This document shows, piece after piece, positions 30,551 to 53,693 of a stretch of DNA of 64,000 nucleotides. The translations under genes and the position numbers were made by a program. The DNA comes from Candidatus Omnitrophota bacterium (GTDB lineage Bacteria; Omnitrophota; Gorgyraeia; 2-01-FULL-45-10): NCBI GenBank assembly GCA_030695905.1, contig JAUYOL010000001.1, positions 66,023 through 130,022 of the forward strand, written 5' to 3'. Within the stretch, counting starts at the first letter, position 1. The number at the start of each line of letters is the position of its first letter. Under the pieces are notes generated by a model, which worked only from the letters and a program-made list of their open reading frames with translations, was not told the origin of the DNA and did no database searches.

Positions 30551-30588
30551 GCTGGCGTAGCTCAGTTGGTAGAGCAGCGGTTTCGTAA
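30551..30588 (+). mobile_element. attL: 38-nt 5' fragment of tRNA-Thr(CGT), identical to 53618-53655, ending at anticodon loop
   Basis: gctggcgtagctcagttggtagagcagcggtttcgtaa is identical to the 5' part of the intact tRNA-Thr. It is preceded by a TATAAT (30531-30536) that fits the original tRNA promoter. Confidence 0.7.
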
Positions 30589-31181
30589 TGGAAACAGGGC
30601 AGTTTTCGTAACCCATTGATATTGTTGCAACTGCGTTATTTCACTGTGAGTTACGTCGCAATTCGAGTTGTAGCAATCTGGACGAATCTGTGTCATTCTG
30701 GCTATGTTTTTATCACAAATTTAGCACAACGACCCCGCGTCGTCATTGCGAGGCCCGAAGGGCCGAAGCAATCTCAATCGCGGTGTAATGATCGCAGTAG
30801 CCGACGTTTTAACGTCGGCTACGTCTGTATAGATGCATAGAAGTGGGGTTATTTGCGTCCACGTCGCGTCTGGCGGGCATGATCAGGTCAGTCTATGCTT
30901 ACGGGTCCTTGGAAGGGGGGTCGGGGTGCGGGTCGGGCGAGGCGCAGGTTGTCAGTGATTTCAGGTTTGAAAAAGCGTGTCCATGTCAATTCATCTAAGG
31001 ACACACTATCAGCATAGGTGATTTGGGACGTCCTTTCCGTCGGAGAATGGCAATATTTTGCGTCAAAAATTATCATCGCCGGGAGGGCCAAAACAGCCGT
31101 TTTTAGGGACATTTTGCTGATTTTTAAGAAATTTTTTATTACAAGTTTGTTATCATTTGTAACAAAGCGTATAGGTGATTT

Positions 31182-31415
31182 ATGGAAAACGGTTACTACG
31201 AGACATATACAGTGCGAGAGATCGCCAAGCAGTTTAAAGTCCATCCCTACACTGTCCGAAGACTGGCAAGGCGGAAGAAGATCCCCGCCTTTCGATTCGG
31301 CGGCCAGTGGAGATTTCATAAACTCGACATCGAGCGATGGGCAGCGTCCTACCCCATAAGTATCAAACCTCTGCCGGTGTTCTCACCACTCGATATAAGC
31401 AGCCATGTTCGCTAA
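31182..31415 (+). CDS. excisionase/AlpA-like HTH DNA-binding protein
   Basis: TVREIAKQFKVHPYTVRRLARRKKIPAFRFGGQWRF follows the excisionase-family HTH_17 pattern. Confidence 0.6.
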   Translation: MENGYYETYTVREIAKQFKVHPYTVRRLARRKKIPAFRFGGQWRFHKLDIERWAASYPISIKPLPVFSPLDISSHVR

Positions 31416-31443
31416 AAATAGATTAATGTTCACTCAGCCCTTA

Positions 31444-31468
31444 ATGTTCACTAAACAGTGAACATTAG
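31444..31468. promoter_or_regulatory. palindromic operator ATGTTCAC-taaacag-GTGAACAT
   Basis: Perfect 8-bp inverted repeat. Related to the palindromes at 28025-28078. Confidence 0.45.
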
Positions 31469-31634
31469 GGTGTGGGCGTCTTGTCGCAAAAACTGTATAC
31501 TTTTTGCGACATAAATTAAGGCCATGTCCCGCTATCTTTAATTCTGCATGAATGTTACATATAATGTAATAAAAACGACAGGAGATTTTCGTTGACTTAC
31601 CCTGTGATTCGTGCTATAAAGTGCAATAACAGCA

Positions 31635-31853
31635 ATGGAGGATAAAATGTCAAAGATAGGAGCCTCACACATGGATATCGTAAAAAAATTAGAGCTGTAT
31701 CGCTTGGAGAATAAGATTACCCAGCAGGCATTGGCTAAAGAGCTTGACGTAGCCTTTTCTACTGTCAGTAGGTGGTTTAACGGCAAGACAGTTCCCAGCA
31801 AAATTCAGCAGTATCATGTAGAAAAGTATCTGAGGAAGAAGGTGGGAGTATGA
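31635..31853 (+). CDS. XRE-family HTH regulator
   Basis: ITQQALAKELDVAFSTVSRWFNG HTH_3 motif. Confidence 0.7.
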   Translation: MEDKMSKIGASHMDIVKKLELYRLENKITQQALAKELDVAFSTVSRWFNGKTVPSKIQQYHVEKYLRKKVGV

Positions 31854-33205
31854 AATTCACAGAAAGCGAAATCGTAGAGCTCAAAACATCGACATCAGAG
31901 CTCAAAGAGGCGATCATTTCATTGGGGGCCATGTTGAACAAGCATGGCAAGGGCACAGTTTATTTCGGCATCGGTGATAATGGTGCCGTTTTGGGACAAC
32001 AGATCGGCAAATCAACCATAAAAGATGTTTCAAAAGCCATCAGTGATTGGATTGAACCCAAGGTTTATCCTGATATTCAGGCCAAGAAAATACAAGGCAA
32101 GGACTGTATTGTTGTTAAAGCCAGCGGACATGATGTCGTGTATTCGGCCCGCGGACGATACTATTTACGGATGGGAGAGGAAGATAAGAAACTTTCGGTT
32201 GATGAACTAAGGCATCTGGTTGAAAAGAAAAATAACTATGCCTATTCATGGGGTGCTGAGCTTTCTAATTTTTCACTATCAAAGGTTAGCGTTGCGACGG
32301 TTAAGAAGTTTGTTGAGAAAGGCCGCAAGGCCGGACGTATTGAATACGCTTATGATTCGGCGCATAACGTCCTTAATAAAATTCACCTACTCAAGGGTAA
32401 AAGATTGCTTAACGCGGGTCGGGCGCTATTTTGTGAAGACAGTGGTGTTGAAGTTCAAGCGGCTGTCTTTGCCGGTAAAGATAAAACGACATTCGTCGAT
32501 ATTCAGAGTTTTCGCGGGCCTCTTTTTAGTTTGATCGAACGGTGCGAAGTTTACGCCAAAGAACACATTAACTGGCGCGCTGATCTTTCCGGTAGCACAA
32601 GGGTGGAAATCCCGGAGGTTCCCGTCCGTGCTATGAAGGAAGCTATTATCAATTCCCTTTGCCACAGAGATTTTTATAATCCTAAAACGAACGAGATCGC
32701 TATTTATCGAGATAGGATCGAAATTTATAACCCCGGCCAGTTTCCTTTTGACCATGATCCGGACGAGTTCATCGCAGGTCATGGTAAAAGCTATCCCAGA
32801 AACCCACTGATTGCGGAAGCTTTTTATCTGGCTAAGGATATTGAGCGGTGGGGGTCAGGCTTGCGGCGTATCAAGGAAGAATGCGATGCCGCGGGTGTGA
32901 AGGTTGCCTTCGAGAAGGTATCTACCGGCTTTCAGGTGACGTTTTATCGGTCAGAAGCCGACACTACCCCTCAAAAGGGCGGAGAAACTGGGGAAAAAAC
33001 TAGGGTAGAAACTAGGGTAGAAACTAGGGTAGAAATAATCAAAATTATGAAAGAAAATCCTCGCGTTACAGTAGGAGATATTGCGAAGGCGACGGGATTG
33101 ACCATAAAAGGCGTTGAGTGGAACATCAAGGATCTTAAGCAGAAAGGCTTGATTAAGCGTATCGGACCTAATAAGGGCGGCCATTGGGAAGTGGTGACGC
33201 AATAA
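31850..33205 (+). CDS. AlbA_2 (Schlafen-like divergent AAA)/HATPase_c_4 protein with C-terminal wHTH
   Basis: N-terminal ESEIVELKTS...GKGTVYFGIGDNG pattern of the AlbA_2 domain. C-terminal HTH. Internal TRVE x3 repeat. Confidence 0.55.
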   Translation: MKFTESEIVELKTSTSELKEAIISLGAMLNKHGKGTVYFGIGDNGAVLGQQIGKSTIKDVSKAISDWIEPKVYPDIQAKKIQGKDCIVVKASGHDVVYSARGRYYLRMGEEDKKLSVDELRHLVEKKNNYAYSWGAELSNFSLSKVSVATVKKFVEKGRKAGRIEYAYDSAHNVLNKIHLLKGKRLLNAGRALFCEDSGVEVQAAVFAGKDKTTFVDIQSFRGPLFSLIERCEVYAKEHINWRADLSGSTRVEIPEVPVRAMKEAIINSLCHRDFYNPKTNEIAIYRDRIEIYNPGQFPFDHDPDEFIAGHGKSYPRNPLIAEAFYLAKDIERWGSGLRRIKEECDAAGVKVAFEKVSTGFQVTFYRSEADTTPQKGGETGEKTRVETRVETRVEIIKIMKENPRVTVGDIAKATGLTIKGVEWNIKDLKQKGLIKRIGPNKGGHWEVVTQ

Positions 33206-33450
33206 TGATTCTCGTCCTCGCAGGGAATAAAGATGAATTCGAAAAGTTTTTGGAGAACCACGAGCCTAAAAACATTTTTAGATTTATCAGCAATGATTCG
33301 GATTATGCAGGGCATAAGAAATGCGATCTACTTCGTATCGGGTCTTACGAAGACAATCCATTGTGGAAAGACATGGATAAGCGGAAAATGTTAAATAAAT
33401 ATTGCTGTTCGAACGAAATTGACATAAATGATGCTTATTTGCGTAGATAA
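33205..33450 (+). CDS. hypothetical protein
   Basis: ORF starting on the ATGA overlap with the upstream stop. Confidence 0.35.
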   Translation: MILVLAGNKDEFEKFLENHEPKNIFRFISNDSDYAGHKKCDLLRIGSYEDNPLWKDMDKRKMLNKYCCSNEIDINDAYLRR

Positions 33451-33615
33451 TGCGCAATTAGTGCACGATTAGTTAATGAGCCATAAATGAGCCAAATGCG
33501 CCAAAGGGGCGCTAATGGGGCGAAAGGGGCAGTAAGGTTCGATTGCACGATTTGGACGAATAGTGCACGATTGGCCTAAGGGGACATAAAGGGGACAAAT
33601 GAGCAGGGTTTTATT

Positions 33616-34161
33616 ATGAACTATTGGTGGACATCAGATTATCACTTTTCGCATTTTAATATCATTCGCTATTGCAAGAGGCCTTTTGAGACGGCTGAAG
33701 AAATGAATGAAACGATCATCCGCAAGCATAATGAGCGGGTTAAGCCGGACGATACAGTTTTCTTTCTGGGCGACTTCATCTTTAAAGGTGGGAAAGAAGG
33801 TGGTGTAGAGAAATACCGGCAGTTCGAAAAGAGGCTGAATGGTAAGTTTATTTTCATCAAAGGCAACCACGACCGGCATAACAGCCTCAATACGATTATC
33901 TCGAAGATGTATATTCATTATGGCTCTAAGGATATTTGCATGACGCACCGGGCCGAGGACGCGGACCCGAATGTGCCATGGAATTTCTGCGGGCACGTTC
34001 ATGAGAAGTATAAGGTGAAACGTTTGAACGAGAATTCCATAATAGTGAACCTTTGTGTTGAGGTGTGGGATTATTATCCGGTCGCGTTTAAACAGATCAG
34101 TTCCGTGATTGCAACATTCATAAAGGAAGAGAAAAATGGTGTGTCGCAGGATCAGATATAA
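33616..34161 (+). CDS. metallophosphoesterase
   Basis: SDYHFSH, GDFIF and GNHD motifs. Confidence 0.6.
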   Translation: MNYWWTSDYHFSHFNIIRYCKRPFETAEEMNETIIRKHNERVKPDDTVFFLGDFIFKGGKEGGVEKYRQFEKRLNGKFIFIKGNHDRHNSLNTIISKMYIHYGSKDICMTHRAEDADPNVPWNFCGHVHEKYKVKRLNENSIIVNLCVEVWDYYPVAFKQISSVIATFIKEEKNGVSQDQI

Positions 34162-35189: not shown

Positions 35190-36725
35190 ATGGCAAAAAA
35201 TAAGAATACAAATGGTGATTTGAACTTTGAGCCGAAGCTGTGGCAGACGGCTGATAAGATGCGTAATAACATGGACGCTGCCGAATATAAGCATGTGGTG
35301 TTAGGGCTTATCTTCCTTAAATATATATCAGATGCCTTCAGTGAGCTTTATCAGAAATTAGCTGGTACCAAAGGCGCGGACGCTGAGGATCCGGACGAAT
35401 ACAGGGCCGAAAACGTATTCTACGTCCCAAAAAAGGCCCGATGGGATTATCTGCAGAAAAACGCGAAACAGCCCACCATTGGCAAGTTTATTGATGATGC
35501 AATGGATGAAATCGAGAAGGATAACTCCACCCTGAAAGGCGTTCTTCCTAAAAACTATGCCCGGCCGGCCCTTGATAAACAGCGTCTCGGAGAACTCATC
35601 GACCTTATTGGGACAATTGGCCTTGGTGACAAAGAAAATCGAAGCAAGGACATCTTGGGCCGTGTATATGAGTATTTCCTGGGCCAATTTGCGGATGCGG
35701 AGGGCAAGAAAGGCGGACAATTCTATACTCCGCGCAGTATAGTGCGCTTGCTTGTCGAAATGCTCGAGCCATATAAAGGTCGGGTATTTGATCCATGCTG
35801 CGGATCGGGCGGCATGTTCGTCCAAGGCGAGAAATTTGTGCAGATACATGGTGGCCGAATTGGCGATATTGCCGTATATGGACAGGAATCAAACCAAACA
35901 ACATGGCGTCTTTGCAAAATGAATCTTGCTATTCGTGGTATCGATGCCAACATCGCATGGAACAACGAAGGCAGCTTCTTAAATGACGCTCACAAGGACC
36001 TTAAGGCCGACTTTGTCATCGCTAACCCTCCGTTTAACGACAGCGACTGGAAGGGCGAACTTTTACGCGAAGATATTCGCTGGAAATATGGGACGCCACC
36101 TATGGGCAATGCAAACTTTGCATGGGTTCAACACTTCATTCATCATCTTTCACCCACAGGGCTGGCTGGCTTTGTCTTGGCTAATGGCGCTATGTCGTCT
36201 AACGCTTCAGGTGAAGGCGATATCAGAAAAAGTATCATAGAAGCAGATATCGTGGATTGTATGGTGGCCCTACCCTCACAGCTTTTCTATAACACTATGA
36301 TACCGGCATGTCTTTGGTTTATCGTGCGTGATAAGAAAAATCACAAATTCAGAGATCGACGCGGTGAAACACTTTTTATCGACGCTCGCAATATGGGCGC
36401 CATGATCGACCGCAGGCACCGCGAACTTACGGACGACGATATTACCAAGGTCGTTGGCACATATCATGCTTGGCGTAGCAAGGGTGGTAAATATAAGGAT
36501 ATAGCCGGATTCTGCAAATCAGCGAAACTATCAGAAATTCAAAAGCATGGCCACATTCTCACCCCGGGCCGTTATGTGGGGGCTGCTGAGGTTGCGGAGG
36601 ACGATGAGGTATTTGAAAATAAGATGAAGCGTCTCACGGGTGAGTTGTCAGAGCAGTTTAAACAATCGGATAAGCTTGAGGCAGAGATCAAAAAGAATCT
36701 CAAAGGCTTAGGATATGAAATTTGA
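35190..36725 (+). CDS. hsdM: type I restriction-modification N6-adenine methyltransferase subunit
   Basis: HsdM N-terminal domain. Catalytic NPPFN. SAM motif [10 protein letters not shown]. Confidence 0.9.
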
Positions 36726-36755: not shown

Positions 36756-37619
36756 ATGGCGGTTTTTATGTATGCATATAATTTTAAACCGAAACAGAAA
36801 GCGATAAATTTTAAAGAAATTTTTGTTGTAATGCCATTCGGAAGCAAATACGACGATATTTATGAGAAATTGATTGTGCCAGCAACTGAAAAAGCGAATG
36901 GCATACTGTCTTATAGTGGTAGTCAGCGGTTGCTTCCCTACAGATCCAAAGATGATATACGAACAACTTCTGGCTGGATTAATGTATTAGAGCATTTATT
37001 AACGGCGCAAATAGTTCTCGGGGTCCTTACTGATAATAATCCTAATGTGTTTTATGAGCTGGGGATAGCGCACGCTACAGAACCAATTACTCGTCAAATC
37101 CTCGTAGCGCCGAAACAATATGAGCGGCAATTTGATTTAAAAGATCTTATTTACTACGAGTATGAAGATGAGCTTGATAAAAGTATTGACCCATTGGCTA
37201 GTCGAATAGCAGACGCTATCAAAAGCTACAACATTGATGAGGAAAAAAAGATTAACCAAGCACGAATGCTCATCGGTCCTTATGAATTTGAGGTGCTGAT
37301 GACGCAGGGAAGCAAAAGGAACTTTGTATTGCATACATCAGTAAAAGGCCGTGAAGACTACGAGAAAGAACTTTTGGCAAGGTTGGGCGAAGAACATTTA
37401 AAAGGAGCGTTTGAAAGGCATGTTCCTGCAATAGCCAATCTTTGTAGCCACGGGTTTCTTGGCCTTCACACATCTTCCGAACGAAAGGACGATAAAACCG
37501 TTGTTCATTTTTCTTATCATTGGACAGAGTTAGGCAATAGCTTACTTTATTTTATGAAATTAATACCGATTGAGGAATTGAGAGCTAGGCGCGATGGAAT
37601 GCCAGCATATTTTGATTAA
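36756..37619 (+). CDS. hypothetical protein inserted between hsdM and hsdS; N-terminal TIR-like / nucleoside 2-deoxyribosyltransferase-like pattern
   Basis: IFVVMPFGSKYDDIY ... VLGVLTDNNPNVFYELGIAHA resembles the NDT/TIR-like (SLOG-fold) signature. Weak assignment. Confidence 0.45.
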   Translation: MAVFMYAYNFKPKQKAINFKEIFVVMPFGSKYDDIYEKLIVPATEKANGILSYSGSQRLLPYRSKDDIRTTSGWINVLEHLLTAQIVLGVLTDNNPNVFYELGIAHATEPITRQILVAPKQYERQFDLKDLIYYEYEDELDKSIDPLASRIADAIKSYNIDEEKKINQARMLIGPYEFEVLMTQGSKRNFVLHTSVKGREDYEKELLARLGEEHLKGAFERHVPAIANLCSHGFLGLHTSSERKDDKTVVHFSYHWTELGNSLLYFMKLIPIEELRARRDGMPAYFD

Positions 37620-37623
37620 ATCT

Positions 37624-38937
37624 ATGAACAAAAATTTCAAACAAACAAAACTTTGTGAAACTCCTGAAGGGTGGGATATCCAAGCCATTGCGGATTTACC
37701 CATTGAGATTATTGATGGTGATCGAGGGCTAAATTATCCTAAGAAAGATGAATTTAAAAAACAGGGGTTTTGTCTATTTCTTAGTACTAAAAATGTCCCA
37801 GGAGAACATTTTGATTTTACCGAAGCTGATTTTATTAACGAGGAACGGGATCGTCTCTTACGAAAAGGTAAATTAAAAAAAGAAGATATTGTCCTTACAA
37901 CGCGTGGCACAGTAGGTAATATTGCGTATTATCATGAACAAATTCCTTACGAACACATTCGTATAAATTCTGGAATGGTTATAATTCGCAATATGGGAGA
38001 CAAATTTGATACGGGTTATCTATGCCATCTTTTGAAAAGCCCTATAGTGAAACAGCAATACCTTAGCTTTGCTACTGGATCGGCACAACCACAGTTGCCG
38101 ATCAGGGATATTAACAAAATTAGACTAACAGTACCTTCTATTTTAGAACAGCGTGCCATTGCCAAAATCCTTTCTGACCTTGATGATAAAATAGAACTCA
38201 ATCACCGGATGAACAAAACCCTCGAATCCATCGTGCAGGCGACTTTTAAGCGGTGGTTTGTAGATTTTGAATTTCCAGATGAACATGGTAATCCATATAA
38301 AACATCTGGTGGAAAGATGACTGACTCTGATCTCGATGAGATCCCTGATGGATGGACTGTTAAGGAAATATCTGATTGCGGAGAAATTGTATGTGGAAAA
38401 ACACCTCCGACGGTTGACAAAGACAATTATGGCAATGATTTATTCTTTATAACCATACCAGATATGCGCGGGCAAGCGTTTGTAATAAAAACGGAACGAA
38501 AACTCTCTAAAAAAGGAGCTTCGACGCAAAATAAAAAAGAATTGCCGGCTCTAACTATTTGCGTAAGTTGCATTGCGACCCCCGGCCTAGTTTCCTTGAC
38601 CAGCGCCCCCAGCCACACAAACCAACAAATTAACAGCATTGTTTGTAATAAAAATATTAGCCCATTTTTTATGTACTACACAATGCTTTATAAGAGTGAA
38701 GAAATAAAGACTATGGGCCTTGGTGGTACCGCAACGCTAAATCTTAATACGGGAAATTTTGCGCGCATTAAAATAGTCGTACCGGAAAAGACAATCACGG
38801 ACGCTTTTCATAAAACAGCAACACCTTTTATGGAAAAGATTTTGTCTAATTTGAAAGAAAATGAAAGTCTTTACATTATTCGCGGTTCTCTTTTACCAAG
38901 GTTAATGTCAGGAAAAATAAGGCTAGGTAAAAATTAA
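37624..38937 (+). CDS. hsdS: type I restriction-modification specificity subunit
   Basis: Two target-recognition domains separated by conserved coiled regions. Possible alternative start at 37594. Confidence 0.75.
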   Translation: MNKNFKQTKLCETPEGWDIQAIADLPIEIIDGDRGLNYPKKDEFKKQGFCLFLSTKNVPGEHFDFTEADFINEERDRLLRKGKLKKEDIVLTTRGTVGNIAYYHEQIPYEHIRINSGMVIIRNMGDKFDTGYLCHLLKSPIVKQQYLSFATGSAQPQLPIRDINKIRLTVPSILEQRAIAKILSDLDDKIELNHRMNKTLESIVQATFKRWFVDFEFPDEHGNPYKTSGGKMTDSDLDEIPDGWTVKEISDCGEIVCGKTPPTVDKDNYGNDLFFITIPDMRGQAFVIKTERKLSKKGASTQNKKELPALTICVSCIATPGLVSLTSAPSHTNQQINSIVCNKNISPFFMYYTMLYKSEEIKTMGLGGTATLNLNTGNFARIKIVVPEKTITDAFHKTATPFMEKILSNLKENESLYIIRGSLLPRLMSGKIRLGKN

Positions 38938-38955: not shown

Positions 38956-40416
38956 ATGGTGAAAAGTTCTTGGACTTCAGATGATACAAAAACATTAGAT
39001 ATTTTACTGGATTACCAAAATTCTCGAATAGACGCCAATGAGAAATCATCGCAGGAAGAAATAAGAAAGTTATTATTAAAGACAGAAGATGTCATTGACC
39101 TTGCTAATAGCATAATCGCTACTAAAGGGCTTTTGCGAGGAGAAAGAATAATTATTGTTAAAGAAGATGGCAATTCTATAGTCCTAGAAGGCAATCGCAG
39201 AACTTGTGCTTGCCAACTATTACTAAGCCCAGAATTAATTCCAAAAGAATTTAGAACAAAATTCCCTATTTGTCATGACGGAGGGATAAAAAAAGAACTA
39301 GAGCATTTAAAATCTGATATTGCGCCAGATAGATTGGCAGCGGAAATTACTATTACCAAGAGGCATACTGAACCGGGAGTTTCGCAATGGACTCCCATTG
39401 CGAAACAAAGAAGAATTACGCGTCTTGTTGAGGCAAGGAGATCTATTGAAGAGTTAATGTCTGAATTTGGAATGACACGGTCAAACATTTTGAAAACTTT
39501 GAAAGATTATCATATTTTTCAATATGCAAAAAATCTTTCCATTTGGAACAAGGTTGAAAAAGATATTTTGAACGATCCAACTCTCTCAATCAATCCTTTC
39601 ACTCGGTTTTTTGATTTAAAGGGTGTTAAGAAAGCCTTGGAATTGAAACATAAAGAAACTGGCGAATTGGAAATCGAGATAAAAAAAGAACTTTTTGACA
39701 AAATCATAGCTTTTATTGCCCGCGAATTTTTAATTCCCGATAAAGGCACAAGTAAGCTTGGTGCAAATACTCGCACAACGCCAGAAGAGTTGTTTCAAAG
39801 TATTTCTTCACATGATAAAGATATAAGAGCATTTCTAAAAAAGAAGCTAAAATTGGATAATTTGAAGAATAAGGAAAAAGCTAAATCTGGGGCCGAATCA
39901 GCAGAACAAACAGGTACGGCTAGGACTTCAGGTGCAACAGCTTCTACGCAAACATCGGCAAAGTCTGGAAAGTTCTTTGAAAATCTTCCCTGTCCTTTAA
40001 AAGATAACCAGCTATTGTTAGTTGTGAATGAAATATCGGATATAAATTATAAGAAATATCGCCTATCAGCAACCTTTCTTGTAAGAGCTTTAGTTGAAAG
40101 AATCTTGAATCATTGCATCGACAAATATGCGCTTAAGAAACAATTGCTAAAGGAGTTTTACACTAAGCGCAAGGGGTGTAAAGGCATAGAACCAGGGCTA
40201 GAGTTTGTGGTTGATTTTTGTATAAAAAATCATGATCAAATGTTCAATGTAAATACAGTACGAAATATTCTAAGAAAATGGAAAGGGGATAAGGATCTAT
40301 TAGATATTATCATTCATGGTCGTTGGGCCAATCCTAGCATTACAAACCTTGAACATTTCGCATCTCTCATTCGACCTACGGTTGAACAAATTCTTAGCGG
40401 GAATGCTTTGAAATGA
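38956..40416 (+). CDS. ParB/Srx-like N-terminal domain protein (486 aa) embedded in RM operon
   Basis: VLEGNRRTCA matches the ParB-N/DGQHR-like DGxxR signature. Low-complexity Ser/Thr/Ala linker. Unknown C-terminal domain. Confidence 0.45.
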   Translation: MVKSSWTSDDTKTLDILLDYQNSRIDANEKSSQEEIRKLLLKTEDVIDLANSIIATKGLLRGERIIIVKEDGNSIVLEGNRRTCACQLLLSPELIPKEFRTKFPICHDGGIKKELEHLKSDIAPDRLAAEITITKRHTEPGVSQWTPIAKQRRITRLVEARRSIEELMSEFGMTRSNILKTLKDYHIFQYAKNLSIWNKVEKDILNDPTLSINPFTRFFDLKGVKKALELKHKETGELEIEIKKELFDKIIAFIAREFLIPDKGTSKLGANTRTTPEELFQSISSHDKDIRAFLKKKLKLDNLKNKEKAKSGAESAEQTGTARTSGATASTQTSAKSGKFFENLPCPLKDNQLLLVVNEISDINYKKYRLSATFLVRALVERILNHCIDKYALKKQLLKEFYTKRKGCKGIEPGLEFVVDFCIKNHDQMFNVNTVRNILRKWKGDKDLLDIIIHGRWANPSITNLEHFASLIRPTVEQILSGNALK

Positions 40417-41342
40417 AAATCGAGCAAGAAAATAAAGCTCTGAATAATAAAACAATAACAACCAATCTGAGCCCATTAAGGTATCCAGGTTCAAAGCGGA
40501 AGATAGCTTTGTATATTAGAGAAATCCTTCAACATAACAAGCTAACTCCCGATCTCCTTGTGGAACCATTTGTCGGTGGCGGTAGCATTTCTCTATTTTT
40601 TATTGCCAATAATTTTGTAAAAAAAATTATTATTTCAGATAAAGATAGATTAATTAGCAGTTTTTGGAAGGTAGTTTTTTCTAATCCAGACAGCATCAAC
40701 CGTTTCATTCAACATGTAAAAATTAATCTTAAAAATTTTGATAAGTATAAAAATATCGCAAAAGATACTGAGAATTATAATGAAACTGAATTAGCAAAAG
40801 CATGCATTTTTCTCAACAGAACTAGCTTCTCAGGCGTTTTAGCTAATCCTGCTGGCCCTCTTGGCGGAAGAGAGCAGAGGTCGGACTACAAAATCGATTG
40901 CCGCTTTAATAGAAAAACCATCGTAAAGAAAATTAGTTGCATCGCATCTTTTAAGAGCAGGGTTATTGTTCGTAATGGCCACTGGAAAGATATAATAAAG
41001 TATGCAGAAGGTTGGCGCAAGGATAATAAGGGGTATAAAAAAACATTCATATACCTAGATCCGCCTTTCTATTTAAAAGGAGAAAGTTTATATAGAAATT
41101 ATTTTGAAACCAATCAACACGAAGAACTATCTAAAGAATTGGAGAAAATAACCTGCCCATGGATTTTAAGTTATGATAATGTCTTACAAGTTAGAAAACT
41201 ATATGAGAATTTTAAAAACATCGTTTATATCGACATGCCATATTCAATTAATTCGCATGCTAATAGAATTGAAAAAGAATTGATAATTACTAACTTAAGT
41301 TTGCCCAAGGTAAACGAAATGAGCTTTCATAATAAGCAATGA
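40413..41342 (+). CDS. D12-class (Dam-like) N6-adenine DNA methyltransferase
   Basis: RYPGSKRK ... EPFVGGGS (motif I) and YLDPPF (motif IV). Confidence 0.7.
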
Positions 41343-44300: not shown

Positions 44301-44932
44301 GGGTTATGGTAAAAAGGATATTACGCAAGCACGGCTACCCTCCGGATAAGGAAAAGAAAGCCACCGAGACTGTTTTAGAGCAGGCTACCTTATTAGGCAA
44401 GGACTGGGCCGAGAAACCAGAAGAATCCGTAGAAAAATCAGATCTATTCTTTAGCGATGTGATCGATAAGGCGACTTTCGAAGAGGATTATTTGCCTATT
44501 TATGATTTGCAGGCGGTTGCGACATCGTTCCGAGAGCAAACCACACCAACAATTAAAGGCTGGAAGCCGATAAAGGGCCGTAATATTAATAAAGATATGT
44601 TTATCGCTCAGGTTGTCGGTAAATCTATGGAGCCAACGATACAAGATGGCAGCTGGTGTATTTTCCGTTTTGATCGTGGCGGTTCGCGCAATGGTTTGGT
44701 AGTGCTTGCCGAATCGCGGTTAGTATCTGATCCGGAAACGAGTCAAAACTTTACCATTAAGCGCTACAAGAGCGAAAAAGAAGATCTCGGCCAGGGCCAG
44801 TGGAGACATAAACGTATTACCCTATCGCCGGACAATAAGACTTTTAACGATATTGTGCTTGAAAACGTTGCCGGTGACGATTTTCGGATTGTAGCTGAAT
44901 TTATAGAGATATTGAAGATTAGGAGTATTTGA
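41339..44932 (+). CDS. hsdR: type I restriction enzyme R subunit fused to C-terminal LexA/S24-like peptidase domain
   Basis: Res-III/DEAD motifs (GSGKS, DEAH) and helicase C. The last ~147 aa (44489-44932) carry GKSMEP ... KRYK ... the S24 Ser/Lys dyad pattern. Confidence 0.8.
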
Positions 44933-45013
44933 CCAAGGGTGATTAGATAGGTGCCTTGAAAGATAGTGGGAAACGTATCGAGTAAAATATTTGTAGCCAA
45001 AAGGTATATTTTC

Positions 45014-46768
45014 ATGACAATGGTTGCAGTATGTCTTTTCAAAGAAGGTGGCGTATTAATCTCCGATTCTCGGGCAACCAAGGATAATAATGGTAAATAC
45101 GCATTTAGCGATACTCTTCAAAAAATTCTCTACATTCGCAAAAATATTGCTCTTTCATATGCAGGTGACGTTCAAATTGCCGGAGATGTTGCAAGAGAAG
45201 TACGGTTAAAGGTTATCGGAGATGACAATCTTAAAGAGCCGCAAACCCTAGCGGCGAAAATACCGACAATTGCCACCCTATCATATCTCAAATATGTATT
45301 TATTAGAGGTAGGCCCTGCGCTGTATATTTACTGCTGGCAGGAGTTGATTCTTCGGGAAAAACATATGCATGGGTTTTTAAGTCACCCGGTTTTAAACCA
45401 ATAAAGATTGAAAATGGTTTCGATGTAATTGGTTCGGGAGAGGTAGTTGTTCCATATTTGGAAAAAAGTTATAAAAATATAGATAGCTCCCATAACGATC
45501 TTAAGTCTAAAGCAGATGCATTAATAGTCGGGCTTGAGAGTGAGCTACAAAAACACGATGTAAACACAGTCGGTGGACTTTTTCAGGTTGTTCTTCTTAC
45601 CCCCGAAGGAATACGTCCCCTTCGTTATGGGTTCATGGACTTAGATCCACTTAAAAGTGGTGATGCAAAAAGTATGGAATTGATCAAGGGGAAATGGACA
45701 CAGACAAATGAGGCAACGCGAGAAAAAGTAGAGCTTTTAGAACCATCTAAACTTGTCACCAATGTTTTTAAAGAGACGCAATTTCATGAATATGCGCCAC
45801 CCAATCAGGATAAAAAAATTCCAAAATGGTATTCATACTATTTTATTACATGTTCAAAAGTCAAAAGGGATATTACTACGACAGAATTTCAGGGTGTATT
45901 AACACAAATAGCCAGTTTAAGATATCCGGCCACTATACCCATTATTGCATCCATGGGATTTTGGGGTACTGCCGGTGAGAATCAAATAGAATTGCGAGTG
46001 GAAAAAGACGGAAAACAAGAAACGATTTATTCCAAAAAAATCCATACAGAATATTTACCCGAAATAGTTGAATTGGATGCAGAAATAAAGCTTGTTATTA
46101 GTTCGCCAGGGCCCGCATTCTTAGAGTTCTTAATTAATAAGCAGGTTCTTGCTAGAAAAGCTCTTTATTTTGGCAATCTCAACGGCATTCCAAAATCCGA
46201 TGGGGATAAAGAAGAATTTCTCAGAGAGCGTCAATCACAGCTCACAGAGGAACACCGACAACTTTCGGATGCTTTTTTGAATGACAAAAATTCTGTTACT
46301 GAATATTTCGTCTTATGTGAGAACTGCATTCATGAGGGAAATGTAATTAAATTTATCAATGAAATGAAAGCGGTTTATTGGAAATCATACCCGCTACCTT
46401 TACGGGTATATATTGCTAGTGCAATCAGAATGCCAAAAGGCAAACATAGTATCCGCATAGAGTTAGTGAATGCGGCGACTCGATATAACTCAAACATAAC
46501 AAACACTACTGTAGAAAACACATCCGATTGCTTAGTTACTCCTATCCATGGCGAAATGGTTGTGAATATACCAGAGCCCGGTATTTATTTTTTCAATCTA
46601 TACGTTGATGGCAAATTTATTACAAGTGCGCTTCTTCCAGCGGAGCTCTCGAAAGCCAAATATTCTTACAGTCTGACAGATGAGGGAGAAAAAATGGTTG
46701 AGTCTGGAGAGTTAATAATTTTGCCAAGACGGTCTATTTTAGAAAGCGAAATAAAGAATAACAAATAA
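45014..46768 (+). CDS. HslV/proteasome-beta-like Ntn-hydrolase domain fused to ~400-aa unknown C-terminal domain
   Basis: N-terminal MTMVAV ... ISDSRAT ... K ... SYAGDVQIAGD ... IGSGE aligns with HslV Thr1/Asp17/Lys33/GSGG. No adjacent HslU. Confidence 0.55.
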   Translation: MTMVAVCLFKEGGVLISDSRATKDNNGKYAFSDTLQKILYIRKNIALSYAGDVQIAGDVAREVRLKVIGDDNLKEPQTLAAKIPTIATLSYLKYVFIRGRPCAVYLLLAGVDSSGKTYAWVFKSPGFKPIKIENGFDVIGSGEVVVPYLEKSYKNIDSSHNDLKSKADALIVGLESELQKHDVNTVGGLFQVVLLTPEGIRPLRYGFMDLDPLKSGDAKSMELIKGKWTQTNEATREKVELLEPSKLVTNVFKETQFHEYAPPNQDKKIPKWYSYYFITCSKVKRDITTTEFQGVLTQIASLRYPATIPIIASMGFWGTAGENQIELRVEKDGKQETIYSKKIHTEYLPEIVELDAEIKLVISSPGPAFLEFLINKQVLARKALYFGNLNGIPKSDGDKEEFLRERQSQLTEEHRQLSDAFLNDKNSVTEYFVLCENCIHEGNVIKFINEMKAVYWKSYPLPLRVYIASAIRMPKGKHSIRIELVNAATRYNSNITNTTVENTSDCLVTPIHGEMVVNIPEPGIYFFNLYVDGKFITSALLPAELSKAKYSYSLTDEGEKMVESGELIILPRRSILESEIKNNK

Positions 46769-47056
46769 AATCACCCCCCCCAATCAACTTTTCTTATGCG
46801 CGCATTTATATACAGCGAACGATGCATAATAATTTAAATGTTTACGGGTCCTTGGAAGGCGGGTCGGGCGCGGCACAAATATTTATTAAAATAGAGACAG
46901 CGCCGTTTTTCAAAAATAAATAGTCGCTGGCCCTATTTTCAGTTAATGAAGTCTAACCAATGGGAATAGTGACCGGACGCTATTCGGACACCGGTAATTG
47001 CATGTTATATATTCACAAAGTCAGGTTAGTAGTGTATAATATAATTGAGGTGAAAA

Positions 47057-48264: not shown

Positions 48265-48266
48265 CA

Positions 48267-48693: not shown

Positions 48694-49066
48694 TTGCTAC
48701 TCCGTAGCAACGACCCCATTGTCAAAATAATTCGTTATTGTAAGATAGGTATAGAAACACATAGGTTGAATTTGTCCATTTTGTGGTAACGACCCTATTG
48801 CAAAAGAAACCTGCTGTTGTAGAATTGTGATGAGGCGGGGTTTTTCTTTTTTTATCCCCGACACTTTAACAGGAAAACCGGTATATACGTTGTAGGAGGG
48901 GGCATTTGAGCGAAAAAATCTGTATATACGTTTTGAGAAATAATTGCGGAAACCCCGACATTTTAGCAGGAAAACCGGAATATACGTTATAGGCGCGGAT
49001 GAAGAAAGTGAAAAAAGTGAAAATATTTCCGGCACTTTTGCATAAAACGTCGTATATAGCTAGTAG
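48694..49066. repeat. iteron-like direct repeats and GTATATAC palindromes upstream of replication gene
   Basis: Two ~41-bp direct repeats at 48856 and 48952. Four GTATATA(C/G) cores. 24-bp direct repeats at 48704 and 48784. Confidence 0.5.
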
Positions 49067-49077
49067 GAGGCATTGAA

Positions 49078-49311: not shown

Positions 49312-49313
49312 CG

Positions 49314-51689
49314 ATGGAAGTCGAGAGAAGAGTAGAGAAGAGATGGATCAGCGAGAATATTCCTGCCGAATTAAAGGATCTGCCGATCTGGGTTGGTTTT
49401 AAGTTTATTCCGCAGGAAGGTCAAAAGCCCCGCAAAGAGCCGTTCAATGCCGCGACCGGCGGCAAAGCCTGTTCGAATAATCCAAAAACATGGCGGTCAT
49501 TTGATGAGGTTATCGGAAGGGCCGAATCAATGCATTTTAATGCCATTGGGATTGGGCTTTCTGAGCCGTACGTTGGCGTAGACCTCGACCATTCCGTTGT
49601 TGATGGAGATATCCAGCCATGGGCCCAAAAGATCATATCGATCATCGATAGTTATACCGAATTCTCTCCCAGCAAAACAGGTGTTCATATTCTTTGTAAA
49701 GGTACGCTTCAAAAGGGACGCAAATTCAGCGCACTTAATATCGAAATGTATCAGAAGACCCGGTTTTTTACGGTTACCGGAGACGTTGTGCCTGAATGCA
49801 GGTCAGAGATCATGGATCGAAGCGGGCAGATCACGAAATTATTCGAAGAGTGTGAGCAGAAGGACAATGAGAAGAGGCAATCAAAATCAATCCTCGACCG
49901 CATATTGAAAAGCCAAGACGCGGAGAAGTTTCAGAAGCTTTTCTCGGGCCAGTGGCAGGATTTATATCCTTCTCAGTCTGAGGCAGACCTTGCGTTGTGC
50001 AACAAGCTGGCCTTTTGGACCGGCAAGGATCCGGCGCTTATGGATTCGCTCTTCCGTAAATCCGGCCTTATGAGGCTCAAGTGGGATGAGAAGCATTTCG
50101 GTGACGGCAGGACATACGGCCAGTCGGTAATAGAGAAAGCGATTAGCGGTTGCCGAGATGTTTATAGCGGCTCTCAAGAGATAACCACAAAACATAAACT
50201 TACACAGGGCGAGATCATCACCCGTGATTGTGAAGAGAAGATTACGGATTTCTTCAGGGATCAGCATGGCAATACTTTCGTCGTGCTTCCGGTTGAGGGC
50301 CACCTTGAGGTATGCCCGACATCAAGCGGTCGCTTTAGGAATTGGAAAGCAACACGTTTTCGTGAGAGGTTCGGTGTCCCGCCAAAAAACGAAGCCATTA
50401 TTCAGGCGCGGATTCAAGTGGAGGCGCGCTGTGGGTGCGGCAAGCAGGTGGAATTATTTAATCGTATAGGCTGGCATGAAGGCAAAATCTATTATGACCT
50501 TACTACTCCTGATTATCGTGGTGTAGCTATTGATGAAAACGGCTGGAATGTCGTCTTCTTACCGCCAATATTCAGGCGTTACCAGCATCAAGCACAGCAG
50601 GTCATTCCGGTTAATGACGGAGATCCGAAAGAGATCTTACGCTTTTGTAATGTGGGTCCGGATGATCACTGCCTTTTTATGGTCGCGATCGCGTCTTTCT
50701 TCATTCCGAACATCCCACATGTGATCATAAGCCAGACCGGCGAGCAGGGTTCCGGCAAGTCCAACAATTCCCGCAAGATCAAGGGTTTGGGCGACCCATC
50801 ACGCGTTATGCTCATCTCGACTCCAAAGGACTTGGAGCAGGCGCAGATGACGGCCGAGAAGCACTGGATCAGCACTTTCGACAATATCTCCAAAATTCAT
50901 GAATGGTTTAGCGACTTCCTGTGTCGTGGCGTTACCGGCGAGGGCGACATGAAGCGCAGTCTTTATACCAATGACGATGAGTTTATCCGGTCATACCGCC
51001 GTTGTTTTGTCTTAAACGGCATCGGCGTTTCAATGTGGCGCGGGGATTTGCTCGACCGCGCGGTTATCTTCGATATACCGGTCCTAAAGGATGCCCGGCC
51101 GGAGCGAGTCATGGATGACGAATGGCAAAAAGCCTTGCCCGGGATCCTCGGAGGCTTCTTTACAGCTATTTCAAAGGCTATGAGAACAGTTTCGCAAGTT
51201 ACCGGCCATGAGAAGTTCCGCATGGCCGATTTTGCCCAGTGGGGCGGCGCTCTGGCTCAAGAGCTCGGCTATTCGAGAGACGAATTCTTTAAGAAATATC
51301 AGGAATCCGTCAAAGGTAAATGGCAGGACACAGCCGAGGACAGCGTCTTTGCCAAAAAGATAATGGATCTTATGGATAGGCGCAACGGCTATTGGGAGGG
51401 TTCAGCGGCAGAGCTTTTGCATGAGATAACGCCGGATAGCGGTGAAGAGAAGGGCATACCCAAAACAGCCAAGTGGCTTTCAACTGAGCTGGTGCGTATC
51501 GCTCCGGTCATGCGTAATGTTGGGGTTGATATTGTGAAGAATGAGAAGCGCGAGCCGGGCACCGGCAGGCGTATCTTTATACTTAAAAGAACAGGGCCAA
51601 AGAGCTGTGAGGATCGGTGTGAGCAGAGTGTGAGCAGCGGCTTGTTTTGTGAGGATCGCGTGGGGGTAGACAGTGATCGGCCGTTCTGA
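49314..51689 (+). CDS. prim-pol (bifunctional primase/polymerase)-type replication protein with P-loop NTPase domain
   Basis: N-terminal LPIWVGFK ... VDLDH ... SPSKTGVHIL prim-pol pattern. GEQGSGKS Walker A in the middle. Confidence 0.65.
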   Translation: MEVERRVEKRWISENIPAELKDLPIWVGFKFIPQEGQKPRKEPFNAATGGKACSNNPKTWRSFDEVIGRAESMHFNAIGIGLSEPYVGVDLDHSVVDGDIQPWAQKIISIIDSYTEFSPSKTGVHILCKGTLQKGRKFSALNIEMYQKTRFFTVTGDVVPECRSEIMDRSGQITKLFEECEQKDNEKRQSKSILDRILKSQDAEKFQKLFSGQWQDLYPSQSEADLALCNKLAFWTGKDPALMDSLFRKSGLMRLKWDEKHFGDGRTYGQSVIEKAISGCRDVYSGSQEITTKHKLTQGEIITRDCEEKITDFFRDQHGNTFVVLPVEGHLEVCPTSSGRFRNWKATRFRERFGVPPKNEAIIQARIQVEARCGCGKQVELFNRIGWHEGKIYYDLTTPDYRGVAIDENGWNVVFLPPIFRRYQHQAQQVIPVNDGDPKEILRFCNVGPDDHCLFMVAIASFFIPNIPHVIISQTGEQGSGKSNNSRKIKGLGDPSRVMLISTPKDLEQAQMTAEKHWISTFDNISKIHEWFSDFLCRGVTGEGDMKRSLYTNDDEFIRSYRRCFVLNGIGVSMWRGDLLDRAVIFDIPVLKDARPERVMDDEWQKALPGILGGFFTAISKAMRTVSQVTGHEKFRMADFAQWGGALAQELGYSRDEFFKKYQESVKGKWQDTAEDSVFAKKIMDLMDRRNGYWEGSAAELLHEITPDSGEEKGIPKTAKWLSTELVRIAPVMRNVGVDIVKNEKREPGTGRRIFILKRTGPKSCEDRCEQSVSSGLFCEDRVGVDSDRPF

Positions 51690-51905
51690 AAGCGTGAGCT
51701 TGCTCACGAACCTCACACTTGCTCACAGCCCTGCTCACAGGGAGAACCTACGGATTATCAATGGGTTAGGCGATTTTGTGAGGTTTGTGAGGCTATTTCT
51801 CTAAAGTGTATAAGATAAAAATATTTAATATAAATAGGTGTATTGCTCACACAAAGGACGCAGGTATAAGGAGAGGGATTTTTGCCTCACAATGCTCACA
51901 ACGAA
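51606..51905. repeat. array of >12 TGTGAG/CTCACA hexamer copies
   Basis: tgtgaggatcgg, tgtgagcag x2 ... ttgctcacga, ttgctcacag, ctgctcacag, tgtgaggtttgtgagg, ttgctcacac, gcctcacaatgctcacaa. Confidence 0.5.
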
Positions 51906-52213
51906 AGGAGAAGTGGTCATGGATAAGGCATGGAATAAGGCTTGTAAAAGGATGGCGGAGCAGGGTAACCGAGAGGTTAAGGCGCACGGCAGGCGATGGG
52001 ACAAGAAGCTTAAAAGGTTGGCAAGTAAGTGGAACGCATCGGCTTCGGGGTCCCTCCAGGGGGGTGTCGGCCGAGGGTCAGGCGAGGCGAAGTCTGTGAG
52101 TGATGTCAGTTTTTGAAAATGTCGTGTCGTGGTCGCATAGGCTGTTTTTGTGCTCAAGGCCACGACAAAACCGGACATTTGCGATGTCCGAATGTCCTAT
52201 TGCGTAATAAACT

Positions 52214-52402
52214 ATGACAAAATTATTTTCACCTCAAGAATTGTCCGAAGTTTTAAATATAAGCATCGAGACCGTCTATGCGTGGACGTCTCAGAAGAGG
52301 ATCCCGTATATCAAAATGGGCAGGCTTGTTCGGTTTAATATGGATGAGGTGAATAAGTGGCTTGAAAGGCAGAGGGTAATGCCATATGAGGGCGAGGGAT
52401 GA
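52214..52402 (+). CDS. xis: excisionase (AlpA/Xis HTH family)
   Basis: LSEVLNISIETVYAWTSQKRIPYIKMGRLVRF. Confidence 0.7.
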   Translation: MTKLFSPQELSEVLNISIETVYAWTSQKRIPYIKMGRLVRFNMDEVNKWLERQRVMPYEGEG

Positions 52403-52512
52403 GGGAAAAATGGGACAGTCCCAATCAACGCTTAATAGATGCTTTTGGGACAGTCCCTATTTTTCCTTAACTACTTGCCAACTCGCAGAAAATATGGCTA
52501 TATACACATACT

Positions 52513-53616
52513 ATGATATATAAACGAGGCAAAACATGGTACATAGGTTACTCCGCTAACGGGCGGTTGATGCGGGAAGCGGTTGGTGAGTCGCGGAAAT
52601 TCGCCGAGCTTGTTCTTGGCAAGAAACGGGCCGAGGTCAGAGAGGGCCGTTTCCTCGATGTCAAGAAACACGCGAAGATCAAGTTTGAGGATTTCGCTAA
52701 GACATTTGTGGAGCTCCATTCAAAGGTTAATAAAAGGCCCAGAGTCGCCAAGAGAGACGAACAACTCATAAAACGCCTGTCCGGGCATTTCGCGGGCAAG
52801 TATCTGTACGAGATAACATCCAAGCAGATAGAAGAATATAAAAAAGTCCGTAAAGAGACTAAGCTCAAGGATAAGTTTATTGCCGCGGCGACCGTAAACA
52901 GAGAATTGGCATGTCTCAAGTGCATGTTTAATAAAGCGATCGAATGGGGCAAGGCAGATGAGAACCCTGTCCGTAAGGTGAAGTTATTTAAAGAGAATAA
53001 TAAACGCTTGAGGTTTCTTGAAAGAGAAGAGATACCAAAGTTCTTGGATAGCGCGGCCCCGCATCTAAAGCCGATCCTGATAGTCGCATTATTTACCGGT
53101 ATGCGTAAGTCGGAGATCCTGACTCTCCAATGGAAGAATATCAACTTTGGGCAGGGCATAATATATTTGCTCCACACTAAGAATGGCGAGCGCAGAGAAG
53201 TGCTGATGAACGATATCGTCAAAAAGACACTTATTGCCGTTCCTAAAAATCCCAGCAGCCCATATATATTCTGTCACGAGGACGGTAAGCCCTACCTGAA
53301 TGTCCGAAAATCTTTTGACGCAGTTTTGAAAAAATGTGATATAATTGACTTCAAATTCCACGATCTGAGGCACACATTCGCCTCGCACCTAGTTATGTTC
53401 GGTATAGACATAAAGACAGTGCAGGAGCTGATGGGCCATAAGTCCATTGAGATGACGCTCCGCTATTCGCATCTATCGCCGGATCACAAAAAGAGGGCCG
53501 TGGAGATCTTAGGAAATAGAATTAGCACAAATATAGCACAAACGCCTAAAACGGCAAATACAAGCGAGATAGGCGAATCGCCTAACTCGTTGAAAGAATT
53601 AGAGTTAGTGCATTAA
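52513..53616 (+). CDS. int: tyrosine-type site-specific integrase
   Basis: C-terminal catalytic motifs HDLRHTFAS and LMGHKSIEMTLRYSHL. Ends 2 nt before tRNA-Thr. Confidence 0.9.
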   Translation: MIYKRGKTWYIGYSANGRLMREAVGESRKFAELVLGKKRAEVREGRFLDVKKHAKIKFEDFAKTFVELHSKVNKRPRVAKRDEQLIKRLSGHFAGKYLYEITSKQIEEYKKVRKETKLKDKFIAAATVNRELACLKCMFNKAIEWGKADENPVRKVKLFKENNKRLRFLEREEIPKFLDSAAPHLKPILIVALFTGMRKSEILTLQWKNINFGQGIIYLLHTKNGERREVLMNDIVKKTLIAVPKNPSSPYIFCHEDGKPYLNVRKSFDAVLKKCDIIDFKFHDLRHTFASHLVMFGIDIKTVQELMGHKSIEMTLRYSHLSPDHKKRAVEILGNRISTNIAQTPKTANTSEIGESPNSLKELELVH

Positions 53617-53617
53617 T

Positions 53618-53693
53618 GCTGGCGTAGCTCAGTTGGTAGAGCAGCGGTTTCGTAAACCGCAGGTCGATGGTTCAACTCCATTCGCCAGCTCCA
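53618..53693 (+). tRNA. tRNA-Thr (anticodon CGT); attR within 5' half
   Basis: Cloverleaf with loop ttCGTaa, T-loop TTCAACT and CCA. Confidence 0.85.

Follow-up and report, generated by a model that had tools for sequence, protein, structure and literature searches.

A 23-kb island at a tRNA-Thr(CGT) gene of an uncultured Omnitrophota bacterium: probable integration at the anticodon loop and a family of related integrases

The 64,000-nt stretch of DNA analysed here (the window; Candidatus Omnitrophota bacterium, GenBank assembly GCA_030695905.1, contig JAUYOL010000001.1, positions 66,023 to 130,022 of the forward strand) holds a segment of about 23 kb, from 30589 to 53655, that is very probably (probability around 0.9) an integrase-mediated insertion into a tRNA-Thr(CGT) gene, with exchange at the anticodon loop. 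Support comes from the anatomy of the two ends, from empty sites in related genomes, from the same element ends found in other contexts, and from the attP layout of a circular relative. All positions given below are those of the window, unless another contig is named.

Island boundaries, empty sites and other occurrences

Six tRNA genes are found in the window by ARAGORN, including tRNA-Thr(CGT) on the + strand at 53618-53693, which scores 70.8 bits with Rfam and is the only RNA family returned by an Rfam scan of 27000-57000. Its first 38 positions occur twice: a repeat search gives a 38-nt direct repeat with 100% identity at 30551-30588 and 53618-53655, the final base of which is the last base of the anticodon loop, TTCGTAA (tRNA positions 32-38, 53649-53655). 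After the loop, the left copy runs into TGGAAACAGG and the intact tRNA into ACCGCAGG. The features at the two ends are:

30510..30538, + strand: native tRNA-Thr promoter, TAGAGA-17-TATAAT with an upstream TG (promoter scan, 10/12 matches)
30551..30588, + strand: attL core, displaced tRNA-Thr(CGT) 5' fragment, positions 1-38 (repeat and mismatch searches)
53618..53693, + strand: attR, intact hybrid tRNA-Thr(CGT), with positions 1-38 (53618-53655) as the right repeat copy (ARAGORN, repeat search, Rfam)

The attL fragment is called as a tRNA by neither Rfam nor ARAGORN. A first-pass annotation, made from the sequence alone, had described the island as bounded by a 38-nt direct repeat, with a tRNA-Thr 5' fragment ending at the anticodon loop as the left copy and the intact tRNA as the right one; each part of this description holds, ARAGORN and Rfam agreeing on the intact gene. 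It had also named coincidental identity as a way for the description to fail. With up to three mismatches, the last 21 nt of the repeat match two sites only in the window and none in 100 shuffles, and the repeat is, therefore, not a chance match. When up to six substitutions are allowed, two tRNA-Thr 5' halves and one 3' half are found in the window. The repeat ends designate the anticodon loop (53649-53655) as the likely crossover region. Two islands in tandem within the interval were also considered, and this was rejected, as no third tRNA fragment appears even at six mismatches or fewer.

The interval also has what Islander looks for in tRNA-gene islands: an intact tDNA with a co-oriented 5' fragment upstream (53618-53693 and 30551-30588, both on the + strand), an integrase of neither Xer nor integron type inside the interval (int, 52513-53616, which abuts attR), and absence from relatives in which the target is uninterrupted (loci L083, L085, and L086, which are other strains, at a genus-like distance). 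Its composition is a mosaic, with a GC content of 0.35-0.50, and the comparison with the flanks that had been suggested in the first-pass annotation gives tetranucleotide correlations of 0.77-0.85 within the island, versus 0.89-0.95 for most flank windows.

In the three unoccupied loci, the MBL proteins are 72-82% identical to that of the window, the gene order is kept (MBL, MFS, ATP synthase, CitMHS, thioredoxin), and an intact tRNA-Thr(CGT) lies shortly upstream of the MBL block, with no integrase, no tRNA fragment, and no blastn match to 30589-53617. One of them, L086, also has, 4.9 kb upstream of its tRNA, a DUF7305 pilin gene whose product shares 61% amino acid identity with that of 26641-27867. 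The empty site to be expected, a pilin gene, tRNA-Thr, and MBL without the island, is thereby found in L086, and L083 and L085 show its tRNA-Thr and MBL part. The exact MBL protein is found in only one other contig, L001, which begins within the tRNA repeat and is, hence, uninformative.

The ends of the element also recur in other contexts. Locus L082 encodes a 99%-identical integrase (P0001), which likewise ends 1 nt before a tRNA-Thr(CGT). Positions 1-38 of that tRNA are identical to those of the window, but there are three differences in its T arm, and the locus has other cargo and another host gene downstream; the tRNA 5' half, therefore, travels with int, and the 3' half is the host's. 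A search of metagenome contigs with the 20-nt attL junction yielded nine true matches. In each of them, the P' arm of the window comes after a tRNA-Thr 5' half, and no fewer than seven different sequences stand upstream. One of these contigs, L172, is 96.4% identical at the nucleotide level to the island's first 3.5 kb and encodes a 100% identical Schlafen-like protein, in a flank of the type of L171 that has no similarity to the window's left flank. Near-identical left ends (96%) and integrases (99%) in other genomes point to a recent spread, as judged from sequence identity. The same 23 kb in another context without the tRNA fragment, which the first-pass annotation had named as contrary evidence, was not seen: island DNA found elsewhere sits again on tRNA-Thr 5' fragments, with other flanks. 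A search of viral contigs for the exact attL and attP junctions gave no match.

Another contig, L173, carries a P-arm tail, a tRNA-Thr 5' half, and a P' arm at 7780-8096, with an 890-amino-acid HATPase-like protein ending about 175 nt before the junction. It was considered as a free attP, and this was rejected because no integrase is found within 7.9 kb upstream of the junction; it is read as a tandem junction with a decayed element, probably a tandem array of which the upstream element lost int.

Within the window itself, the segment 27856-28090, which comes directly after the pilin stop codon and lies to the left of both attL and the native promoter, is homologous to DNA of the island interior. 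Its similarity covers the 3' end of the island HTH_17 gene and an operator-like region, with 87% identity over 209 nt to the island of L178. The segment is followed by AbiEi/AbiEii, which are island cargo in L180, and then by an open reading frame (ORF) of 192 amino acids. An exact-protein look-up of the left-flank ORF 29799-30377 returned no record. From these similarities, 27856-30377 is probably a relic of a related element.

The integrase, its attachment site and its relatives

The genes and sites that make up the recombination module are:

52214..52402, + strand: excisionase-like HTH_17 protein, 62 amino acids, directly upstream of int (Pfam HTH_17 E 3e-14)
52513..53616, + strand: tyrosine integrase (int), 367 amino acids (Pfam Phage_integrase E 3e-32, Int_N)
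53523..53541, + strand: P arm, TAGCACAA twice, 11 nt apart, in the int ORF 3' end, 126 and 115 nt before the loop
30609..30621, + strand: IHF-like site TAACCCATTGATA, an exact match to the consensus YAANNNNTTGATW, 21 nt past the core
30711..30729, + strand: P' arm, arm-type repeats TATCACAA and TAGCACAA, 11 nt apart, 123 and 134 nt past the loop

The integrase belongs to the tyrosine recombinases, with a PF00589 match at E 3e-32 and the R-K-H-R-H/W-Y set intact (R198, K223, H283, R286, H309, Y318). These six catalytic residues are invariant in an alignment of 37 relatives, and the PDB matches of the protein are integrases and Xer proteins. The first-pass annotation had placed a tyrosine integrase 2 nt before the tRNA; the enzyme is as described, and the gap is 1 nt, the TAA stop occupying 53614-53616. 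The xis gene that it had listed corresponds to 52214-52402, whose product also matches PHROG_66, 'excisionase and transcriptional regulator' (E 5e-9); a gene at this xis-like position is also present in L082 and L090.

Pairs of TAKCACAA repeats flank the core, at 53523/53534 on one side and 30711/30722 on the other, in the arm-core-arm arrangement of heterobivalent integrases, and it is to these repeats that the N-terminal domain of the integrase would bind. The layout at the island's far end, with a repeat pair as P' arm, is also found in L004, L005, L050, L057, and L090. Between core and P' arm, 30609-30621 is a putative host-factor site. An exact IHF-consensus motif stands beside the tRNA in 10 of the 62 typed loci described below, versus about 0.4 expected, and always in one orientation; in L090, a one-mismatch copy is present at the equivalent position. 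A second copy of TTTCGTAA (30604-30611) was considered as an old att remnant, and belongs more plausibly to the IHF-like motif.

The predicted attP of the window's island can be seen directly in a relative. The IMG/VR contig L090 (1-14874) has a 127-nt terminal overlap, which makes it a 14,747-bp circle. It encodes an integrase 52% identical to that of the window, an HTH_17 protein, a D5-type primase, an HK97-type capsid protein, and a serine resolvase, and is a small phage or satellite in free form. ARAGORN finds no tRNA in it. Directly after int lies the 5' half of a tRNA-Met(CAT), which stops at the end of the anticodon loop (CTCATAA), and the only four copies of GGTGACA in the contig are at -124, -113, +121, and +132 nt from that loop, close to the spacing of the window arm repeats (-126, -115, +123, and +134 nt).

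Relatives of the integrase number in the thousands, and most of them come from uncultured Omnitrophota and from further phyla of sediment and groundwater. For comparison at the family level, 80 genome loci were fetched with an alignment of relatives, and 62 of them, window included, were typed, a typed locus being one where a tRNA gene lies no more than about 150 nt from the 3' end of int; this tRNA adjacency (62/80) is unlike Xer proteins. In 30 of the 62 loci, the tRNA is co-oriented with int, which abuts the tRNA 5' end, as in the window (5'-type), and in the other 32 the tRNA is convergent with int, the classic 3' geometry. Eleven islands are complete, meaning that they lie wholly within the fetched DNA. 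In the five of 5'-type (window, L004, L005, L050, L057), the shared repeat extends from position 1 to 38-43 of the tRNA, and in the six of 3'-type (L026, L027, L033, L048, L051, L061), from position 29-32 to the 3' end. The anticodon loop is the only part common to all eleven repeats, which places these islands in the anticodon-loop sublocation class. That class is defined by att identity bounded at the anticodon stem-loop and by cleavage at the loop borders (Williams 2002, summarised in PMC4383910 and PMC8371274).

Sequence variants narrow the position further. The hybrid tRNA of L004 has a G29 mispaired with A41, and the displaced fragment keeps the pairing T29, direct evidence that the 5' part of this tRNA came from the element and that the exchange lay 3' of position 29. 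The L174 fragment diverges in the acceptor stem and D loop and is host-specific up to position 17, and the L179 fragment differs from the window's 5' half at position 27. Together, the variants of these three loci indirectly suggest strand cleavage between positions 30 and 43. The crossover at the anticodon loop proposed in the first-pass annotation is, thus, supported both by the ends of shared sequence across the family and by the half tRNA of L090, which ends at the loop.

The choice of tRNA half is largely inherited: the window's closest integrase clade is uniformly 5'-type, and the geometry matches that of the nearest relative in 54 of the 62 loci. Switches of tRNA half have happened, since the integrases of L017 and L022 are 67% identical and yet differ in geometry. 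The neighbour-joining tree is rough and its deep branches were not used; statements on the family rest on pairwise identities and nearest neighbours. Arm repeats are shared by both geometries. Tandem repeats with an 11-nt period occur in the last ~100 nt of int in 57 of the 62 loci; in many relatives the unit is ATGGACACTATTTGGACAC, encoding DTxWT, and in the window the two TAGCACAA copies encode ISTNIAQT. The distance from arm pair to anticodon clusters around 98 or 119 nt in both types, with medians of 98.5 nt (5'-type) and 99 nt (3'-type). These data suggest that the anticodon loop is used alike whichever tRNA half is carried. They agree with the view that a lineage of integrases can reverse its direction with respect to the tRNA thanks to the symmetric anticodon stem-loop.

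Two relatives of the integrase (45-50% identity), L006 and L014, come from metagenome-assembled genomes of Methanosarcinaceae and Methanosarcinales, and in L006 the integrase stands beside a co-oriented tRNA-Leu. This could reflect cross-domain spread or a binning error.

Replication module and defence cargo

The other annotated features of the island are:

31182..31415, + strand: HTH_17 DNA-binding protein at the island left end (Pfam HTH_17 E 1e-15; 95-99% identical in L172 and L178)
31635..31853, + strand: HTH_3 regulator (Pfam; 100% identical in L172)
31850..33205, + strand: Schlafen/AlbA_2-HATPase_c_4-winged-helix protein (Pfam; 100% identical in L172)
35190-36725, + strand: hsdM, type I restriction-modification (Pfam, PADLOC)
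37594-38937, + strand: hsdS, type I restriction-modification (Pfam, PADLOC)
38956-40416 and 40413-41342, + strand: PD-Lambda-5 A/B pair, nested between hsdS and hsdR (Pfam, PADLOC)
41339-44932, + strand: hsdR, type I restriction-modification (Pfam, PADLOC)
48856..49072, + strand: three 46-nt direct repeats, upstream of a DUF5659 ORF and the primase gene (repeat search, family D1)
49314..51689, + strand: replication protein of primase-polymerase type, 791 amino acids (Pfam NrS1-1_pol-like_HBD E 6e-30; PHROG DNA primase E 3e-78)

A replication protein had been announced in the first-pass annotation, and one is present, namely the primase-like protein of 49314-51689, the gene of which is preceded by the DUF5659 ORF; the ORF at 31850-33205 encodes instead Schlafen/AlbA_2, HATPase_c_4, and winged-helix domains. 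The 46-nt repeats (87% and 65% identity to the reference copy) may, from their position, be iterons or a replication origin. Near the 3' end of the Schlafen-like ORF, at 32983-33030, the 12-nt unit AGAAACTAGGGT occurs as four tandem copies.

Defence cargo spans about 16 kb, two thirds of the island. The type I restriction-modification system noted earlier is confirmed, with hsdM, hsdS, and hsdR identified by both Pfam and PADLOC, and several genes that had been taken for orphans turn out to be defence genes according to PADLOC. The PD-Lambda-5 pair, inside the type I operon, consists of a 486-amino-acid protein and a D12-class methyltransferase. HsdR (1197 amino acids) ends with a Peptidase_S24 (LexA-like) domain at residues 1066-1187 (E 1e-7), a fusion that seems unusual. 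Further along, 44966-46768 encodes a 600-amino-acid protein with an N-terminal proteasome-subunit-like domain and a C-terminal DUF6941, for which PADLOC gives no match and whose neighbours are defence genes. A metallophosphoesterase and the Schlafen/AlbA_2-HATPase_c_4-winged-helix protein are also counted among the defence cargo. The 16-kb defence cargo is bracketed by a G-rich repeat of about 45 nt (ATGYTTACGGGTCCTTGGAAGG...GCGGGTCGGGCG), at 30895-30946 and 46838-46877, which may mark a cargo exchange point between related elements.

In searches of the island ORFs, neither a capsid, terminase, portal, tail, or lysis family (Pfam and PHROGs) nor a relaxase, coupling protein, or type IV secretion family (Pfam) was found, which tells against a prophage and against an integrative conjugative or mobilisable element.

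Mode of insertion, alternatives and known systems

Combining these elements, a heterobivalent tyrosine integrase would insert the element into the chromosomal tRNA-Thr(CGT) of Candidatus Omnitrophota bacterium. The attP would lie directly past the int stop and comprise, in order, an arm pair in the last 100 nt of int, tRNA positions 1-38, the IHF-like site, and a second arm pair about 125 nt on. Strand exchange in the 7-nt anticodon loop would then join the element's 5' half to the host's 3' half, giving a complete tRNA at attR beside int and leaving the host's original 5' half and its promoter stranded 23 kb away, at attL. The element would bring its own replication module, made of iteron-like repeats and a primase. 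The predicted attB junction is CTATAATCTCGTGAAACAC followed by the full 76-nt tRNA (longer left part GCTATAATCTCGTGAAACAC), and the predicted attP junction is GTGCATTAAT, the 38 nt (GCTGGCG...TTCGTAA), and TGGAAACAGG (longer parts GAGTTAGTGCATTAAT on the left and TGGAAACAGGGCAG on the right).

One consequence of such an exchange concerns the expression of the rebuilt tRNA. The native promoter, which stays behind at attL, 12 nt ahead of the displaced fragment, is the only good sigma-70-like site for this tRNA; its core, ATCTGCTATAAT, also precedes the unoccupied tRNA-Thr of L083 and the L178 and L179 fragments. In the window, the promoter scan finds no sigma-70-like promoter between the int start and the tRNA. 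Because the gap between the two genes is 1 nt, with no promoter-like site between them and too little space for a terminator, transcription together with xis and int is the likeliest route, one to which about even odds are given, and the tRNA would then be released by RNase P. An element-borne tRNA promoter in the int 3' end is not claimed for the window, since none was found by the scan and the family shows no clear excess (7 of the 30 5'-type versus 3 of the 32 3'-type loci reach 9/12 matches). In L057 (10990-11035, 4390-4435) and L078, the stretch common to attL and attR reaches beyond the tRNA 5' end and takes in a TTGAC-N18-TAATAT promoter, so some 5'-type elements carry their own copy of a tRNA promoter.

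How far the island is still a functional element can be weighed from the same data. It is rather probable that this copy is still mobile, and a fixed relic, inserted by the integrase and now unable to excise, is the less probable option. A relic would account for the large and mosaic cargo (GC 0.35-0.50) with its bracketing 45-nt repeat, and decayed relatives do exist, such as L173, with its P-arm tail and no int; moreover, neither a circular form nor an empty site of the same strain was found. Such a relic sits less well with two identical 38-nt copies, a full-length int ORF with all catalytic residues, an xis-like gene, and two intact arm pairs spaced as in the circular relative, or with the near-identical left end and integrase in other genomes. 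Whether the element should be called a prophage or phage satellite, instead of a plasmid-like genomic island, depends mostly on its gene content. The capsid, D5-type primase, HTH_17, and int genes of L090, which comes from a viral collection, speak for a phage connection, as do the resemblance of the window's int-xis-primase module to satellite cores and the several island ORFs without a family match; with no virion or lysis family found among the ORFs by Pfam or PHROGs and two thirds of the island given over to defence, this assignment is nevertheless improbable.

Two further alternatives touch the insertion itself. Shared sequence alone would permit a crossover anywhere in positions 1-38, for example in the D stem-loop, whose arm (GCTC-AGTTGGTA-GAGC) is symmetric; a review on archaea considers that two archaeal integrases might cleave at the D and T loops instead (PMC8371274). 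This is very improbable here, as host-specific differences in the fragments reach positions 17 (L174), 27 (L179), and 29 (L004), 3'-type relatives share sequence only from 29-32 on, and the arm pairs of both L090 and the window are centred on the anticodon loop. Even further from the data is the notion that the 5' fragment is a tRNA pseudogene left by duplication or rearrangement and the 23 kb ordinary chromosome. Partial tRNA genes occur in prokaryotic genomes, which makes this a bare possibility, and its chances are close to nil: the fragment ends exactly where att identity ends in the family, it is accompanied by the conserved P' arm in nine other contigs, the interval is absent from relatives and compositionally distinct, and int abuts the intact copy.

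Several points weigh against insertion at the anticodon loop as reconstructed here, or against parts of it. Cleavage positions are deduced from the ends of shared sequence, and the core is less symmetric than in the textbook model, since the post-loop TGGAA of attP does not mirror the 5' anticodon stem GCGGT. Co-transcription is argued from the absence of a promoter, with a scan whose consensus is of E. coli type and could miss an Omnitrophota promoter, and L057 and L078 carry a good promoter copy of their own. The unoccupied sites come only from genomes in which the neighbouring protein is 72-82% identical, no excised circle of this strain was found, and an exact search of JGI metagenomes with the 45-nt right-hand host junction gave no match, the strain being outside that collection. 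Finally, the island-like DNA at 27856-30377, left of attL, is unexplained by a simple one-insertion model, and lies on the wrong side of the native promoter for a simple tandem array.

Extending the reading to the whole integrase family is more tentative, and on present evidence doubtful. In this extension, members from uncultured Omnitrophota, Nitrospirota, Desulfobacterota, Acidobacteriota, and some Methanosarcinales would share one fixed attP architecture while repeatedly switching the tRNA half; for members using the 5' half, the host tRNA would end up as the final cistron of an xis-int transcript, released by RNase P 1 nt past the int stop, and the promoter stranded at attL would point into the same-strand genes of the island. 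If this is true, these genes and the tRNA supply would both depend on the integration state of the element. The regularities seen at the family level, namely the fixed arm-to-anticodon spacing, the arm sites in the int ORF, and the repeated half switches, may be undescribed for this clade; they extend known principles and do not break them.

The island offers a clean and multiply cross-checked example of the uncommon 5'-half mode of tRNA integration, for which the attP arms, the core, and a putative host-factor site have been worked out. With it, 23 kb of recently acquired mobile DNA bring a type I restriction-modification system, PD-Lambda-5, and defence-like genes into an uncultured Omnitrophota lineage. 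The defined att sites and the compact integrase could also serve as an integration tool for tRNA-Thr(CGT) targets.

Among known systems, the closest frame is given by the tRNA-gene islands of Islander (Hudson, Lau and Williams 2015, PMC4383910), which, like the window, have an intact tDNA, a co-oriented fragment upstream, an integrase inside, and an anticodon-centred attP (class 'A', 2083 sites). The window falls in the minority class: of 3919 islands, 159 have a 5' tDNA fragment versus 3760 with a 3' fragment, which bears out the view of the first-pass annotation that this geometry is the less common one. The Omnitrophota host and this integrase clade are probably outside Islander, which was built from complete genomes.

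Use of the 5' half is described for pTN3-like integrases, with which the recombinant tRNA is expressed from the integrase promoter, an arrangement seldom met in bacteria (PMC8371274). In the pTN3 / TKV4-type elements of Thermococcales, 41 bp are shared with tRNA-Leu, and integration splits int (Cossu et al. 2017, PMC5495485). As in the window, where 38 bp are shared, attP and attB have the tRNA 5' half in common, and the rebuilt tRNA loses contact with its native promoter. The likeness is drawn from att geometry, and the host is archaeal for pTN3 and bacterial for the window. The two differ in that the pTN3 attP lies inside int, whereas the core of the window is past the stop. Of the attachment site, the arm repeats alone reach into the int ORF, which remains unbroken, and the split int of SSV-type elements is not found.

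With lambda-type heterobivalent integrases, the window's integrase shares an N-terminal extension that precedes the core-binding and catalytic domains. The two also have in common paired arm repeats some 120-130 nt to either side of the core, a motif of IHF consensus lying between core and arm, and a small HTH excisionase-like gene beside int. In contrast to the lambda type, the predicted arm repeats of the window all run in the same direction, in pairs 11 nt apart, and the P arm lies inside the int coding sequence, where the repeats encode the C-terminal tail.

Classic anticodon-loop phages, such as P22 in thrW, carry the 3' part of the tRNA, which keeps its own promoter. The island of the window has in common with them a crossover at the 7-nt anticodon loop of a tRNA-Thr gene, but it restores the 5' part, and 32 of the 62 family loci use the classic orientation. 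The island, therefore, belongs to the anticodon-loop class, in its minority 5' orientation and with a lambda-like attP, a mode of insertion that is uncommon and already known.

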